A stretch of DNA of 44,884 nucleotides from Chloroflexota bacterium (lineage in GTDB: Bacteria > Chloroflexota > Anaerolineae > Anaerolineales > UBA4823), in NCBI GenBank assembly GCA_023395675.1, contig JAEWYL010000318.1, positions 1-44,884 of the forward strand. The letters are read 5' to 3'. The position numbers were made by a program. Positions 33,001 to 42,000 of this stretch are shown here, piece after piece. The first letter of the stretch is position 1, and each line of letters opens with the position of its first letter.

Positions 33001-36000
33001 TAGCTGAACGAGAGCACCAGGTCGAACTCGCGCAGGTCCAGGCTCTCCACCGCCCGGGGATAGAGCGGGAAGAACAGGCGGTGGTAGCGCTGCGCGCCCG
33101 GCAGGCGGTTCAGGAAGGAGGCGCGCGCCGGGACGCCTTCCAGCGGCGTGCCGGCGAAGGCCGAGGGCCGGTGGATCAGGGTGTAGAGCTGCGCCCGGGG
33201 GAAAACCCGCCGGGCCTGGACCAGCACCCGCTCGGCCCCGCCGAAAAACGGCAGGGCGTCTTGCACCAGCGCCGTCTTGAGACTGGGCTGCACGCCTGGT
33301 TCCCCCATCACGCCAGCCCTTCCAGCAGTTCCCGCACCCGGGCAGCGGAGCGCTCCCAGGGGAAGCAGGCGGCGCGCTCCTGGCCCGCCCGGCGCAGGTC
33401 TTCCCGGCCCGCCGCCTGCAGCAGGGCGCCGGAGATCGCCTCCGGCGAGAGCGGGTCGAACAGCAGGGCCGCGCCCCCGGCCAGCTCGGGCAGCGCGCCG
33501 CAGGCGGAGGCCGCCGCCGGCGCGCCGCAGGCCAGCGCCTCCAGCAGGGGCAGGCCGAAGCCCTCATCCAGCGAGGGCAGCACAAAGGCCGCCGCCCCGC
33601 TGTACAGGGCCGGGAGCAGCCGCTCGGGCACGTACCCCAGGCGAACCGCTCGCGGCGGCAGCGGCCCCGGCGCCTCCCGGCGGAACTGCACGCCCGGCGC
33701 CCCCGCCAGGGCCAGGGTGAAACCGGGCAGGGCGGGCGCGGCCAGCTCCCAGGCCGCCAGCAGGCGGGCGTGGTTCTTGCGCGGCTGCAGGCTGCCCACC
33801 GAGAGGAGGTAGCGTTCGGGCAGCCCCAGGGCCAGCCGGGCGCGCTCGACCTCCTCCCGCCCCCGGGGGTAAAAGACCTGCCGGTCCACCCCGCCGGGCA
33901 CAACTTCCAGCCTGCCCGCCAGCCAGGGGTAGCGCCCGAGCAGGGCCTGCCGCACGGCGCGGGAAGGCACGGCCACCCGCCCGGCGCGGGCCAGCAGAGG
34001 CGGCAGCAGGGCGCGGTACAGGGCGGCGAAAACGGGGTGGTACCACTCCGGGTGCTCCAGCGGGCCGGGGTCGTGTACGCTCACCACCTGGCGCGGGTGG
34101 GCCAGCGGGCCGCTGTTCGCCGGCGACCAGAGCGCGCTCCCCCGCCCCGCCCGCAGGGGCAGGACCGCCTGCTCCCACAGGTGCCCGAGCGGCCCCCGCA
34201 GCCGCGCAGGCGGGCGTAGCACGCGCACCCCTCCCCCCAGACGCCGGGTGATCTCGGAGGCGTAGCGTTCCACACCGGTGACGCGCCGCCCGAGGGCGCG
34301 CCCGTTCACCGCAAGGCTCCATTCCCCTTTCATACTCATGTGTACGGGAAATGCTGGGGCCTGGATCCACAGGCTGCCGCCCCGGTCCATCTTCCGCGGT
34401 TGAAAACCGTGTTTCCAATTCGTCCGTATGATCAAATAAGTGATTCTCGCTCAGTTGGTGAACGGAAACCTCCGCCGCAGGGGCTGCACCCGTTGTTGGA
34501 GGATTATCTCAGGAACCAGTTCGCGAAGCTGTTTTGTTGTGCAGGGCCCTTTCGGCGCTCTGCACGACAAAATGAATTCTTCTAAGGGGTGAGTTTTGTT
34601 TTCCGAACGACTGTGGGGCCAAGCCCCATAATCACTCGGAAACCGGTTCCTCTGAATTTAGCGAGAAGACCGCGAAGTCACCAAAAAGGGGAAATCGATT
34701 TTGAGGACCGTAGCTGACGAAAGGGGGAGAGAATCCACACGCCTGAGCGCCGGGGGTAAAGCGCTCGTTCCCGGGCGCTTCTCGGGCCTGGGACTGGCGC
34801 GCGGCCGGGCAGGGCTGGCCGCGCTGGCCCTCCTGGCGGCGCGGGCGGCTTTCGCCCTCACCCTGGCTGCCAGCCCCTGGCGCTACCGCAGGCTGCTGCT
34901 GGAGCGCGAGCTCCCGCCGGTCTACGGCGACTATACCGACTTCCTGCTCTTCGTCCCGGACCGCCTGCTGCTGGCCGTCCTGCTCCTGTGGGCGTTGAGC
35001 CTGGCCCTGAGGCCGCGCCGCCTCTCCCCCGGGCCGCTCTTCCTCGCCCTGCCCATCGCCGGCCTGACCCTGGCGGGGGCGGCGAGCATCCCCTTCTCGG
35101 TGGACCCCGCCCTTTCGGCTTACCACGCCCTGCGCCTGCTGGCGCTGCTGGGCTTCTACCTGTTCTGCGTGAATGAGATCCGCTCTCTGGGCGAGGCGCT
35201 CGCCGGCGCCGGGCTGCTGGTGTTCTCGCAGGGCGCGGTGGGCGTGGCCCAGGTGCTGTCGCAGCGCTCGCTGGGGCTGGAGCGCTGGGGCGAGTACAGC
35301 CTGGACCCGGCCTGGAGCGGGGTGAGCATCGTCTGGTCCGGCACGCTGCGCTCTCTGCGCGCCTACGGCCTGTCCGACCACCCGAACATCCTGGGCGGCT
35401 GCCTGGCTTTCTCGCTGCTCCTGCTGGCGGCGGTCTACATCCCGACTTCCGGGTCCCGCTGGAAGCCGCTGCTGGGCGGGCTGTTCGGGCTGGGCGCTCT
35501 GGCCCTGCTGCTGACTTACTCCCGTTCGGCCTGGGCCGCCTTCCTGGCGGGGATGCTCTTCCTCGGGCTGGGACTCTCCGGCAGCAGGCGGCGGGCGGCC
35601 CGGCAGTGGCTGGCCCTGAACCTGGGCGCCCTGGCCCTGCTGGTCCCCTTCCTGCTGCACTCGGCCCCCTTCCTGGCGCCCCGCCTGGGGCTGCCGGCGG
35701 GCGAGGCCGGCGCCCCGGGGCAGGCGCAGGCACTCGGCGAGCGCGCCCTGCTCAACGGCTGGGCCAATGAGCTCTTCGCCTCCCGGCCCCTGACCGGGGT
35801 CGGGCTGGGCGCCTTCCCCTCCGCCCTGCACGCGCACTACCCCGGCCTGGGGCTGAACTACCAGCCCGCCCACTTCGTGCTGCTGGACGTGGCCGCCGAG
35901 ACGGGGATTTTCGGGGCGGTCTTCTACACCCTGCTGCTGGCAGGACCCTGGCTGGCCCTCCTGCTGCGGCGCAGGTCCCTGCGCTTTTCGCCCTTCCTGC

Positions 36001-39000: not shown

Positions 39001-42000
39001 CTGCAAGCCGGGGCGGATTTCGTCCTCCTGGGCGAGGGCGAGCTCACCCTGGGCGAGCTCGCCGCCCACCTGAGCGGCCGTGAGGCCCCGCCCCCGGGCG
39101 AAATCCCCGGCCTCGCCTTCCTGGAGCCGGATGGAAGCGGCGCCCTCCACCGCACCCGGCCTCGCCCGGCCCTGCGCGACCTGGACAGCCTGCCCTTCCC
39201 CGCCTGGGACCTGGTGGACATGGAGCGCTACCGGGGCCTCTGGCTGCGCCGGCACGGCTATTTCTCCCTCAACCTGGCCACCACGCGCGGCTGCCCCTTC
39301 CACTGCAACTGGTGCGCCAAGCCCATCTGGGGCCAGCGCTACAACAGCCGCAGCCCCGAAAACGCCGCCGCCGAGCTCAAACTGCTGAAGGAGCGCTACG
39401 CGCCCGACCATATCTGGATCGTGGACGATATTTTTGGGTTGAAGCCCGGCTGGGCGGCGGAATTCGCCCACCGGGTGCAGGCGAACGGGGCGCGCACACC
39501 CTTCAAGAGCCTGAACCGCGCCGACCTGCTCTTGCGCCCGGGGGAAATCGAGGCCCTCAAGCGAGCCGGCTGCGAGACGGTCTGGATGGGGGCCGAGTCC
39601 GGCTCGCAGGCCGTCCTGGACGCCATGGATAAGGGCCTCCGGGTGGAGGCCATCTACACCGCCACCGCGCACCTGCGCCGGGCGGGCATCCGGGTCGGCT
39701 TTTTCCTGCAGTTCGGCTACCCGGGCGAGACTCTGGAGGATATCCGCCGCACCCTGCGGATGGCGGCCGAATGCGACCCCGACGACATCGGCATCTCCGT
39801 CTCCTACCCCCTGCCCGGCACGCCGTTTTTCGAGATGGTGCGCGCCCGCCTGGGCGAGCGGCAGAACTGGCAGGACTCGGGCGACCTGGCGATGCTCTAC
39901 CAGGGCCCTTACAGCACCGCTTTCTACCGCCAGCTCCACCGGGTGGCGCACCTGGAGCACCGCCGGCGCAGGGCGCTGGGGGTCCTGCGCGGCAAAGCCC
40001 CTCCGGCGCGCGCCTCCGCCAGGCCGGCCCCGCGCTGGCGCAGCCTGGCGCGCCTTGGGCTGGACAGCGCCCGCCTGCTGCCGGCGCGCCTGCGCCTGCG
40101 CTGGCTTGCCCGCCGCTCCAACCCGCTGATCGAGCCCCTCCCCGCGCGCCTGCCCCCCTCCGAGGCCGCTGTGCCCACCCGGCAGGAGACCTGATGGCCT
40201 CCCCCTCCCCCACCCCGCCCCCGGAGAGCCCCCCGACCGGCGTACGCCGTCCGGGACAGGAATGGGCCCAGGTGGCCGAGGCTTTCGGGCGCAAGGCCGC
40301 CCTCTACGATGCCTTCGGGCAGGACCATCCCATCCTGGAACGCATGCGCGCCCGGGTGCGCCGCCAGGTGGAGAGCCTGCTGCCCGCCGGGGGACGCCTG
40401 CTGGAGATCAACGCCGGGACCGGGGCCGACGCGGCCTACTTCGCCGCCCGCGGCTGCCGGGTGCACGCCACCGACCTCTCCGGCGCGATGGTGGCCCGCA
40501 TCCGGGCTCGCATCGCCGGGGGCGGCTTCGAGGGCCGGCTGAGCGCGCAGCAGCTCTCCTTCTACGACCTGCAGCGGGCCGCGCCCGGGCCTTACGACGG
40601 CGTGCTCTCCAATATGGGCGGGGTGAACTGCGCCGGGGAGCTGGCCCCCATCGCCCGCGGCCTGGAGCGGCTGCTGGCGCCCGGCGCGGCGGCGGTGTGG
40701 GTGGTGATGCCCCCGCTCTGCCTGTGGGAGCTGGCCCAGGCGGCGCGCGCCGATTTCCGCCTGGCTTTCCGCCGCCTGCGGCGCGGCGGCGTGCTCGCCC
40801 GGGTGGAGGGGCTGCCCGTGCGCACCCACTACTACAGCCCCGGGCAGGTGCTGGACGCCTTCGGCCCGCGTTTCAGGCTCCTGAACCTGCAGGGCCTGTC
40901 CGTCTTCACCCCCCCGGCGGACCACAAGGAATTCCCGGCGCGCCGCCCGCGCCTGTACCGGCTGCTGTGCGCCCTGGACGAGCGCCTGGCGGGCCGCTTC
41001 CCCTTCCACAGCCTGGGCGATTTCTTCCTGATCGCCCTGCGCTACGAGCCGTGATGCGCGCTGCCGCCCCGCTCCTCCCGCTCGCCTGTCCGGCCTGCCG
41101 CACGCCGCTGGAACCCTCCCCCGGCGGGATGGCTTGCCCGCGGGACAGGCGCGTTTTCGCGCCGGCGGGCGGCGTCTGGCGCTGCCTGCTGCCCGAGCGC
41201 GAGGCCCATTATGCCCGCTTCCTGCGCGAATACGAGTTCATCCGGGAGGCCGAGGGGCGCGGCTCGCCGGACCCGGCCTATTACCGCGCCCTGCCCTACG
41301 CCGACCTGAGCGGGCGCGATCCGGAGGGCTGGCAGCAGCGGGCGCGCAGCTTCACCCGCTTTGTGCGCCGGGTGCTGGAGGCGGAGGAGAAAAAACGCGG
41401 CCCCCGCCTGAAGGTGCTGGACCTGGGGGCCGGGAACGGCTGGCTGTCGTACCGGCTGGCGCAGAGGGGCCACCTCTGCGCCGCCCTGGACCTGCGCGCC
41501 GGAAGGCTGGACGGGCTGGGGGCGGTGGATTGCTACGAGCTGCCCATCACCGCGGTCCAGGGCGAATTCGACCGCCTCCCCTTCCCCGGCGGCTGCTTCG
41601 ATCTGGCGCTTTTCAACGCCTCCCTGCACTACTCCAGCGCTTACGAAACCAGCCTGCGCGAGGCCCTGCGGGTGCTCGCCCCGGGCGGGAAGCTGGTGGT
41701 GCTGGATACGCCCCTCTACCACCGGGCGTCCAGCGGCGAGGCGATGCTGCGCGAGCGAGCGGCGCGCTTCACCCGCCGGTACGGCTTCCCCTCCGACGCG
41801 CTGGACAGCGAGGGCTTCCTTACCCCGGCGCGATTGGCGCAGCTGGAGGCCGCCGCCGGGCTGCGCTGGCGGGCGCTGCACCCGCGCCTCGGTCTGGGCT
41901 GGCGGCTGAGGCCCTGGCTGGCGCGCCTGAGGCGCAGGCGCGAGGGGGCTTCCTTCCCGGTCCTGGTCGGGCTGCCCGGGAAGGCGCAGCCGCGCTGACC

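Follow-up and report, generated by a model that had tools for sequence, protein, structure and literature searches.

A conserved Chloroflexota gene cassette pairing an unnamed nucleotidyltransferase-fold family with class B radical SAM enzymes in a probable envelope-glycan operon

Several described systems resemble, each in part, a tightly coupled six-gene operon (g1 to g6, 34701-41998) which we analysed in a Chloroflexota bacterium (NCBI GenBank assembly GCA_023395675.1, contig JAEWYL010000318.1, positions 1 to 44,884; this whole stretch of 44,884 nucleotides is called the window hereafter). In the HpnI/HpnJ/HpnK pathway, which turns bacteriohopanetetrol glucosamine into the cyclitol ether, and in the case of the archaeal calditol synthase Cds, a glycosyltransferase (GT) and a radical S-adenosylmethionine (SAM) enzyme are encoded together and the sugar sits on a membrane-bound acceptor. 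BcsA-type cellulose synthases carry the D,D,D,QxxRW signature, a transmembrane channel and, at the C-terminus, a PilZ domain. The enzymes ANT(4'), AadA/ANT(3'')(9) and Lnu, like the MNT antitoxins, have a Pol-beta core with a G-S...D-x-D motif and a helical domain, and the ANT enzymes nucleotidylate sugar hydroxyls. In the biosynthesis of fosfomycin (Fom1/Fom3) and phosphinothricin (PhpF/PhpK), a nucleotidyltransferase (NTase) makes a nucleotide-tagged intermediate and the pathway has a class B radical SAM methyltransferase. In the capping of O-antigens and S-layer glycans at the non-reducing end, e.g. by the WbdD kinase/methyltransferase, cytoplasmic methyltransferases and a phosphate-adding enzyme modify the glycan during assembly. 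Finally, methylation of unactivated sugar carbons by class B enzymes is well known only for GenK, GenD1 and Fms7 (listed in PMC12931638). The operon in the window probably makes a methylated envelope glycan. A glycan-biosynthesis cluster is a known kind of locus; undescribed are two of its features, the new NTase-fold family and the class B radical SAM enzymes as tailoring core. Topic searches of full texts found no description of this cassette, and no curated family or solved structure matches it.

The operon and the divergent genes next to it are laid out as follows.

31511-32176, minus strand: Bac_transf, small polyprenyl-phosphate glycosyl-1-phosphate transferase of the WbaP C-terminal type, 221 aa; the divergent unit of three genes ends with it
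32154-33311, minus strand: GT4a, GT4 glycosyltransferase, 384-385 aa (Pfam Glycos_transf_1, Glyco_trans_1_4); 23-nt overlap with the start of Bac_transf
33308-34390, minus strand: GT4b, GT4 glycosyltransferase, 360 aa (Pfam GT4 domains); first gene of the divergent unit
34391-34700: 310 nt between the two divergent units, presumed to hold a bidirectional promoter and the leader; no gene called
34701-36155, plus strand: g1, Wzy_C-family membrane protein, TTG start, 484 aa; followed by a 22-nt gap
36178-37680, plus strand: g2, GT2 membrane synthase, 500 aa; GTGA overlap with g3 at 37677-37680
37677-38633, plus strand: g3, NTase-fold protein, 318 aa; followed by a 7-nt gap
38641-40194, plus strand: g4, radical SAM protein, 517 aa; TGATG overlap with g5 at 40192-40196
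40194-41054, plus strand: g5, class I methyltransferase, 286 aa; TGATG overlap with g6 at 41052-41056
41054-41998, plus strand: g6, class I methyltransferase, 314 aa

Of these genes, g3 and g4 are almost obligate partners. When one genome per species was scanned, 336 g3 loci were confirmed, and the best 80, mostly from Chloroflexota with a few from Acidobacteriota and one from Methylomirabilota, were kept for counts and analysed by tblastn and all-against-all clustering of open reading frames (ORFs). In 61 of the 70 loci with enough downstream sequence, the next gene after g3 on the same strand encodes a B12-radical SAM enzyme, and 32 of the 34 loci with full flanks have such a gene nearby; in Promineifilum and Sphaerobacter the two genes overlap by 4 nt. 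The first-pass annotation of the window had stressed the combination of GT2 and radical SAM enzyme and proposed that conservation of the six-gene block be checked. The block does recur in other genomes, yet its invariant core is g3 with g4, and the GT2 is the more occasional partner, as the following counts illustrate.

g3 cluster: 75/80 loci
rSAM-A (orthologs of g4, 55-71% identity): 52/80 loci
MT1 (g5): 48/80 loci
Wzy_C (g1): 38/80 loci
MT2 (g6): 38/80 loci
rSAM-B (about 32-41% identity to g4): 35/80 loci
GT4b: 25/80 loci, often directly beside g3, Acidobacteriota loci included
Uridine-phosphorylase/AMP-nucleosidase-like: 17/80 loci
Third B12-radical SAM paralog (C): 15/80 loci
GT4a: 13/80 loci, adjoining the cassette (orthologs of 44-51% identity)
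Another GT4: 12/80 loci
FG-GAP propeller: 8/80 loci
GT2 (g2): 7/80 loci
MOP flippase: 7/80 loci
SPASM radical SAM: 6/80 loci

The cassette is accompanied by two to three class I methyltransferases and often has one to three extra radical SAM paralogs, with methyltransferases, after g4. Three architectures recur: g3, rSAM-A, MT1, MT2, which is that of the window; g3, rSAM-A, rSAM-B, MT1, then often MT2 and the third B12-radical SAM gene (C); and g3, rSAM-B, MT1, FG-GAP, GT4, Wzy, Wzy. The full arrangement, with Bac_transf, GT4a and GT4b diverging from Wzy, GT2, g3, rSAM, MT1 and, further on, MT2, is also found in loci L005, L021 and L057 (in which Bac_transf is co-located with the cassette), and in L019 and L065 without a Bac_transf in range, at protein identities of 45-71% across these five; the same gene order recurs in L007, L086 and L087 as well. 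The unusual conservation of rSAM-A, GT2 and Wzy_C (48-71% identity) points to a single product that is conserved, and not to a variable antigen. Some further genes follow the methyltransferases in related loci. A PNP_UDP_1 protein, absent from the window, does so in 17 loci (e.g. L038 at 3234-4007, L019, L021 and L052); the models nearest to it are those for uridine phosphorylase, AMP nucleosidase and DeoD and not that for methylthioadenosine/S-adenosylhomocysteine nucleosidase, and a nucleotide or base handle could be taken off by it. In loci of the rSAM-B type (L006, L009, L017, L018, L022, L060, L062) and in L087 (14991-16484), the gene directly after a methyltransferase encodes an FG-GAP/VCBS beta-propeller of about 400-500 aa.

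Moreover, long members of the g3 family are fusions to orthologs of g3's own neighbours. A GT4 similar to GT4b (33-37% identity) is fused to a g3-like domain in either order (P0247, P0325, P0299), the GT4-g3 order being represented by three distinct full-length sequences on five contigs and the g3-GT4 order by a sequence on a 2.7-Mb contig; in P0251 a full-length g2 ortholog (57% identity) and in P0276 a g1 ortholog (49% identity) is joined to a g3 domain. GT2-g3 fusions are found among 12 of the 120 closest g2 orthologs, as proteins of 821-860 aa with the g3 domain at the C-terminus, 64-67% identical to g2 and 41-48% to g3. Their contexts repeat the order of the window and include two minimal loci, L086, where a GT4 diverges from Wzy, GT2-g3 and rSAM, and L087, with Wzy, GT2-g3, rSAM, a methyltransferase and an FG-GAP protein. 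Since g3 is fused to glycosyltransferases in relatives, it works physically with them, and the fusions tie the cassette to glycan assembly. The grouping of g1 to g6 is more than chance, because the same gene order recurs across species-level genomes and neighbouring genes are fused in relatives. The earlier view of a translationally coupled unit with a link to glycan assembly is supported, and the unit is conserved.

The largest cassette, in L085 (10001-22118), encodes on one strand a g3-GT4 fusion, four B12-radical SAM enzymes, one SPASM radical SAM enzyme, three methyltransferases and another GT4. Divergently upstream of it lie genes for Agd3-like, GH114 and Spherulin4 proteins, families that are associated in fungi with exopolysaccharide systems of the galactosaminogalactan type. 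Such an accumulation of a GT4, several B12- and SPASM-radical SAM enzymes, methyltransferases and an NTase is reminiscent of antibiotic clusters, and one may ask whether the product is a diffusible specialised metabolite, such as an aminoglycoside-like or nucleoside-like pseudo-oligosaccharide, and not an envelope polymer. The uridine-phosphorylase/AMP-nucleosidase-like gene would fit such a product, and the known class B sugar C-methyltransferases GenK, GenD1 and Fms7 come from aminoglycoside pathways (PMC12931638). However, the cassette spans many Chloroflexota lineages with rSAM-A and GT2 at 60-70% identity, unlike sporadic biosynthetic clusters; it is associated with, and fused to, the membrane synthase and Wzy_C, with Bac_transf among its associates, and no resistance, transporter or core scaffold genes recur with it. 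We therefore consider a diffusible metabolite very unlikely. GenK, GenD1 and Fms7 themselves belong to actinomycete secondary-metabolite clusters rather than polysaccharide loci, and they are set beside g4 by description, none of them being among its matches in the Protein Data Bank (PDB).

The g3 protein has no match in Pfam or NCBIfam. In its AF2 model (pLDDT 90.2), a winged helix at residues 16-79 precedes a Pol-beta NTase core, and the C-terminal domain is helical. The Pol-beta motif hG[GS]-x9-13-DhD is present as G123-S124-x10-D135-L-D137, on the adjacent model strands 116-122 and 136-142; the G-S...D-x-D motif had been noticed before, with a spacing of twelve residues where the sequence reads ten. 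Its neighbours in the PDB by Foldseek are MNT antitoxins, AadA and ANT(4'), all weak (E 0.015-0.3), with MNT as the best (E 0.015, probability 0.99) and AadA at E 0.06. The window g3 itself lacks a Pfam match, and 8 of 20 g3 relatives match NTP_transf_2 weakly (best E 0.008). The model, these structural neighbours and the matches in relatives support the NTase fold that had been proposed for g3 from the sequence. In an alignment of 134 sequences (g3 and 133 relatives, 31-51% identical), G123, D135, D137, C169, N171 and N211 are invariant, and the candidates for the third catalytic residue are E191 (96% conserved) and N171 (100% conserved). The motif residues being invariant, g3 is therefore argued to be an active enzyme, and catalysis is likely. 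It differs from the ANT and MNT proteins by the extra N-terminal winged helix, by invariants of its own (C169-P-N171, N211 and a C-K-G-H motif) and by the low significance of the structural matches.

The family is large. More than 650 close homologs were found, every named one being called "hypothetical", in Anaerolineae, Caldilineales, Ardenticatenia, Promineifilaceae, Thermoflexus, Roseiflexaceae, Herpetosiphonaceae, Sphaerobacter and Thermomicrobiaceae, and a profile search of 1.84 billion representatives returned 6508 clusters (50% identity) at E <= 1e-3, with 2238 at E <= 1e-30. A 179-aa "short g3" (P0004) is an artefact and no variant of the family, produced by a scaffold gap of 100 N (L001, 9345-9444) that interrupts g3 in the second assembly of this organism. 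We also set aside a defence or toxin-antitoxin role, considered on account of the MNT-like fold, as PADLOC gave only generic methyltransferase-domain matches (mad2) and a 21-bit radical SAM match.

Another role for g3 is suggested by the GT2-g3 fusions, in which its domain sits at the cytoplasmic C-terminus of a BcsA-fold GT2, the position that PilZ takes in BcsA. In that case g3 would be mainly a regulator or scaffold that gates or recruits the synthase or the GTs, and might bind or make a nucleotide signal, with the radical SAM enzyme and the methyltransferases acting on a separate substrate. Its N-terminal winged helix is a typical interaction domain, and three different fusion partners would suit a scaffold. 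Yet the catalytic G-S...D-x-D is invariant across the family, and g3 is paired most strongly and most widely with the radical SAM enzyme instead of a GT, a pattern that suggests a substrate in common over regulation of the synthase. A mainly regulatory g3 is thus quite unlikely in our opinion.

By domain architecture, g4 is a class B radical SAM enzyme of the type that we call rSAM-A, with a B12-binding domain at residues 24-140 (PF02310, 37.4 bits against a cutoff of 32.1), a Radical_SAM domain (PF04055, 69.7 bits against 29.5) and the cluster motif C218PFHC222NWC225. Its orthologs are 60-70% identical across Chloroflexota and bear the public name "radical SAM protein" or an automatic BchE/YgiQ label. 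No NCBIfam curated cutoff is reached. The best-scoring curated model is that of the B12-binding radical SAM enzyme HpnJ (TIGR03471, 120.6 bits against 577.6), followed by those for ladderane (TIGR04072, 109.7 against 360), BchE (109.4 against 481), ApyD (94.7 against 750), PhpK (83 against 600) and AprD4 (73 against 500). HpnJ aside, these models together with HpnR, TIGR04295, BzaD and QCMT score 67-110 bits where their cutoffs are 251-750, and the Sden_1168 model matches weakly. The best PDB matches are QCMT 9ccb (72 bits), AprD4 (68 bits) and CysS (43 bits); 9CCB is described as QCMT, and AprD4 as having the class B architecture without cobalamin binding (PMC12931638). The profile searches thus place g4 in no curated subfamily, in line with the original reading of a class B enzyme that could be matched to no described pathway.

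The first place of HpnJ in this ranking leads to a further possibility, namely remodelling of a glycolipid head group of the HpnI/HpnJ or calditol-synthase type, where a GT would add a hexose to a membrane lipid and g4 would contract its ring, giving a cyclitol or carbasugar for the methyltransferases to decorate. A precedent for ring contraction has been described (PMC13459092). The rSAM-B paralog matches HpnJ as well (134 bits), g2 weakly matches HpnI (29.4 bits against a cutoff of 310) and HpnB, and the nearest models of GT4b are GT4s with small acceptors, such as MshA, the MSMEG_0565 family and GlcNAc-PG synthase. The Acidobacteriota loci, moreover, consist only of GT4s, g3, radical SAM genes and methyltransferases, and lack Wzy and flippase. 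Nonetheless, the HpnI, HpnJ and HpnB matches lie far under the curated cutoffs, 5- to 10-fold for g4 and g2, and BchE, ladderane and ApyD score similarly to HpnJ, so the analogy with HpnI/HpnJ that had been drawn from the window comes down to a weak resemblance. In contrast to the hopanoid system, the window lacks hpn and shc genes as well as a deacetylase; its GT2 is a polymer synthase of the BcsA fold with a full BcsA-like channel, and the invariant partner is an NTase-fold protein, which hopanoid pathways lack. The Wzy_C, flippase, Bac_transf and LCP genes of the cassette's surroundings point to polymers as well. The only terpene-cyclase-like match in the window is a repeat protein of 387 aa, encoded about 9 kb before the operon begins (24362-25525, minus strand; weak SQHop_cyclase repeat matches of 37.6 and 29.9 bits), too short for a squalene-hopene cyclase and probably an alpha-alpha toroid of the prenyltransferase type. 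Head-group remodelling is accordingly an unlikely explanation. A related idea, methylation of lipid chains as in branched glycerol dialkyl glycerol tetraethers, was dropped, since the fusion partners of g3 are a polymer synthase, GT4 and Wzy_C and not lipid enzymes.

Both remaining genes encode class I SAM methyltransferases, for which Methyltransf_25 and _11 score above their cutoffs. The g5 protein (MT1) matches Methyltransf_25, _12 and _11, has the SAM motif LLEINAGTG at residue 69 and finds only weak PDB matches such as CalS10. In g6 (MT2), Methyltransf_11 scores 56.6 bits and the SAM motif reads VLDLGAGNG; the N-terminal segment, to which a zinc ribbon was assigned earlier, is rich in cysteines (CPAC at residue 12, C28 and C44), and Trm112p scores 20.8 bits, just under its cutoff of 22, which leaves the ribbon plausible and not established. 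Neither protein reaches a curated NCBIfam subfamily, the matches being to generic methyltransferases. It could be thought that these enzymes and g4 modify a ribosomal peptide or a protein which the winged helix of g3 would recognise, in view of the models for ribosomally synthesised and modified peptides (ApyD, rSAM_ocin_1) and the MCR glutamine C-methyltransferase among the matches. In a Sphaerobacter metagenome-assembled genome, the cassette of L084 is followed at 17861-19003 by genes for a 69-aa Frankia_peptide protein (PF14407) and a polyprenyl synthase, and the former would be a candidate substrate. Neither the window nor any of the other 86 loci has a homolog of it, however; no conserved small ORF accompanies g3, the clusters of short ORFs looking like antisense or low-complexity artefacts, and the fusion of g3 to glycosyltransferases speaks against a peptide. 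This reading is hardly credible.

The glycan side of the operon is formed by g1 and g2. The g1 protein is polytopic, with at least eight hydrophobic segments, and belongs to the Wzy_C family of O-antigen ligases and polymerases (PF04932, 53.7 bits against a cutoff of 31.7), whose ligases and polymerases are not separable by sequence. The family uses lipid-diphosphate-linked sugars, and the identity of g1 in syntenic loci (48-55%) is unusually high for it. By Pfam, g2 is a GT2; of its transmembrane segments, one is N-terminal and several are C-terminal, and its motifs DD89-90, D145xD147, TED236-238 and QQGRW274-278 are invariant in 24 orthologs. The top Foldseek match of its AF2 model (pLDDT 84.6) is BcsA, at E 5e-19 and a TM score normalised to the query of 0.63-0.69 over about 510 columns that include the transmembrane channel, followed by PcManGT, hyaluronan synthase and CesA. 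The model thus indicates a BcsA-fold synthase which would both polymerise and translocate a beta-glycan, and the processive membrane GT2 of the first-pass annotation is upheld by the motifs and by this superposition over the transmembrane region. It is not an equivalog of a named synthase in NCBIfam (CelA 122 against 699 bits, PgaC 92 against 422, NodC 40 against 550). Unlike BcsA, it has no PilZ domain, and BcsB, BcsC and BcsZ genes are absent here; in about 10% of close g2 orthologs the C-terminal g3 NTase-like domain stands in place of the PilZ of BcsA.

Of the parts of a Wzx/Wzy pathway, the window holds a phosphoglycosyl transferase, two GT4s and the Wzy_C protein, with no flippase. The divergent Bac_transf and GT4 genes, confirmed on the minus strand as a tightly overlapped unit (31511-34390), can build a polyprenyl-linked oligosaccharide. 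Bac_transf scores 283 and 270 bits with the NCBIfam models WbaP and EPS_sugtrans, under the cutoffs for the full-length proteins, since it consists of the catalytic domain alone. That no Wzx lies in the window, as had been remarked, is correct; the absence is partly explained by the translocation channel of g2 itself and by flippases of the MOP type, the superfamily of Wzx, in related loci. In Promineifilum, for instance, a flippase gene and a GT-A-like gene follow the cassette, and a gene for an LCP (LytR_cpsA_psr) ligase is nearby. The absence of a chain-length regulator could be explained by the likeness to non-reducing-end capping, although capping systems, unlike the window locus, have ABC transporters and no radical SAM enzyme.

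Taken together, we propose that the locus is a conserved Chloroflexota cassette for the assembly of an envelope glycan and its tailoring in the cytoplasm, by a nucleotidyl handle, radical C-methylation and O- or N-methylation. Here g3 would be an active nucleotidyltransferase of the aminoglycoside-NTase type which puts a nucleotidyl group on a sugar, either on the sugar phosphate or a sugar hydroxyl of a precursor or on the glycan primer; a hydroxyl would be the target as in the ANT enzymes, and a phosphate, giving a nucleoside diphosphate (NDP)-sugar, would be less conventional. The nucleotide handle would present the substrate to g4, which, with methylcobalamin and a 5'-deoxyadenosyl radical, would place a methyl group on an unactivated sugar carbon or, less likely, rearrange the sugar; g5 and g6 would add O- or N-methyl groups. 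The modified sugar would then be incorporated by g2 or the GT4s, and g2 with g1 would place the glycan in the envelope. A precedent for such a handle is Fom3, which acts on cytidylyl-2-hydroxyethylphosphonate made by the cytidylyltransferase domain of Fom1. The analogy is mechanistic only, as the Fom1 and PhpF NTases have a different fold (MobA/GT-A-like) and phosphonate substrates, and there is no phosphoenolpyruvate mutase here. Methylation is the commonest class B chemistry. In a 2026 review, every group of B12-radical SAM enzymes with a characterised member includes C-methyltransferases (PMC12931638). With up to four B12-radical SAM enzymes, one SPASM radical SAM enzyme and three methyltransferases in relatives, multiple or iterative methylations are implied.

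A number of points weigh against this proposal. A BcsA-type synthase would leave its polymer little accessible to cytoplasmic enzymes, and the modification would have to hit the donor or the primer. NTases of the Pol-beta fold normally use hydroxyl nucleophiles, and formation of an NDP-sugar would be unusual for the fold. The nearest curated models of g4 include the non-methylases HpnJ, BchE and AprD4, and methylases and non-methylases of class B are inseparable by sequence (PMC12931638). The fusion of Wzy_C to g3 is a single sequence on a 3.6-kb contig. At least one glycan-assembly gene is present in 46/80 loci, a figure which comes without a matched background while GT genes are common in genomes, and the other 34, e.g. 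in Ardenticatenaceae and the Sphaerobacter locus L084, show no glycan gene near the cassette, although many of these loci are short. As to the target of the modification, donor or primer are favoured, because the product seems conserved, the BcsA-type site shields the chain, and a donor would be channelled by an activating enzyme that is fused to GT2 or GT4. On balance, we see the model of an assembly and tailoring cassette as a whole as evenly poised between right and wrong. The more specific claim, that a new NTase-fold family hands sugars to B12 radical SAM enzymes to give a C-methylated or rearranged envelope glycan in Chloroflexota, some Acidobacteriota and Methylomirabilota, is put forward tentatively, with more doubt than confidence.

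The six genes have the appearance of a real transcription unit. On reading the window, all the coordinates, spacings and overlaps reported earlier for them were reproduced, and Pfam confirmed the domain calls for g1, g2, g4, g5 and g6, with the DD/DxD/TED/QQGRW and CPFHCNWC motifs in place. The G+C content at third codon positions (GC3) is 0.91-0.94 in the annotated frame of each gene, which fits real genes as the genome is 70% GC, and the same six genes were found by independent gene calls on two metagenome contigs with identical proteins. These junctions and GC3 values are as expected for a single operon. A scan of 34200-42700 for promoters and terminators found no promoter-like site and no credible terminator inside the operon; its two terminator-like matches (36222-36234, plus strand; 41414-41401, minus strand) are fewer than the 4.2 expected from shuffled sequence and hence not credible. 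Neither a sigma-70 consensus nor a terminator was found in the divergent intergenic region. No Rfam family was detected in the window or in seven related loci, which leaves a riboswitch or RNA-leader reading unsupported.

Other genes surround the locus. A response-regulator receiver gene (42022-42453, minus strand) is convergent with g6, with about 23 nt between the stop codons, and two-component genes flank the cassette in L085 and L087 as well. On the other side, an L-asparaginase gene (30498-31517, plus strand) overlaps the 3' end of the convergent Bac_transf by 7 nt at its own 3' end. Next to it, 25381-30279 (minus strand) encodes a 1632-aa UvrA-like ABC ATPase with several Walker/ABC and zinc-finger-like segments, much longer than canonical UvrA, for which Pfam gave only weak UvrA_DNA-bind matches. 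Further away lies a sugar-catabolism cluster (5418-19724) with GatZ/KbaZ-like, SIS, phosphotransferase system (PTS) enzyme I, amidohydrolase, galactitol-type PTS enzyme IIC, DeoC/LacD aldolase, zinc alcohol dehydrogenase and ROK kinase genes; to our knowledge, a PTS is not expected in a Chloroflexota-like genome. In a single 701-aa protein (2049-4154, minus strand), CopC and CopD are joined to a cytochrome c domain at the C-terminus.

If the proposal is true, it would give class B radical SAM chemistry its first role in the biosynthesis of a bacterial polysaccharide or cell wall; the 2026 review of B12-radical SAM enzymes makes no mention of glycans or polysaccharides (PMC12931638). It would also be a new way to couple a BcsA-type synthase to a catalytic C-terminal partner. 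For radical SAM enzymology, the cassette offers a large, well-conserved and uncharacterised class B group with a candidate partner protein and substrate class, and for glycobiology, a family of at least 6500 clusters (50% identity) that has no Pfam model and is fused to three kinds of glycan-assembly enzymes. Chloroflexota are abundant in sludge, sediments and hot springs, and little is known of the chemistry of their envelope. With a conserved, B12-dependent cassette for glycan tailoring, a new component of this envelope would be defined, and its synthesis would be linked to the availability of cobalamin.

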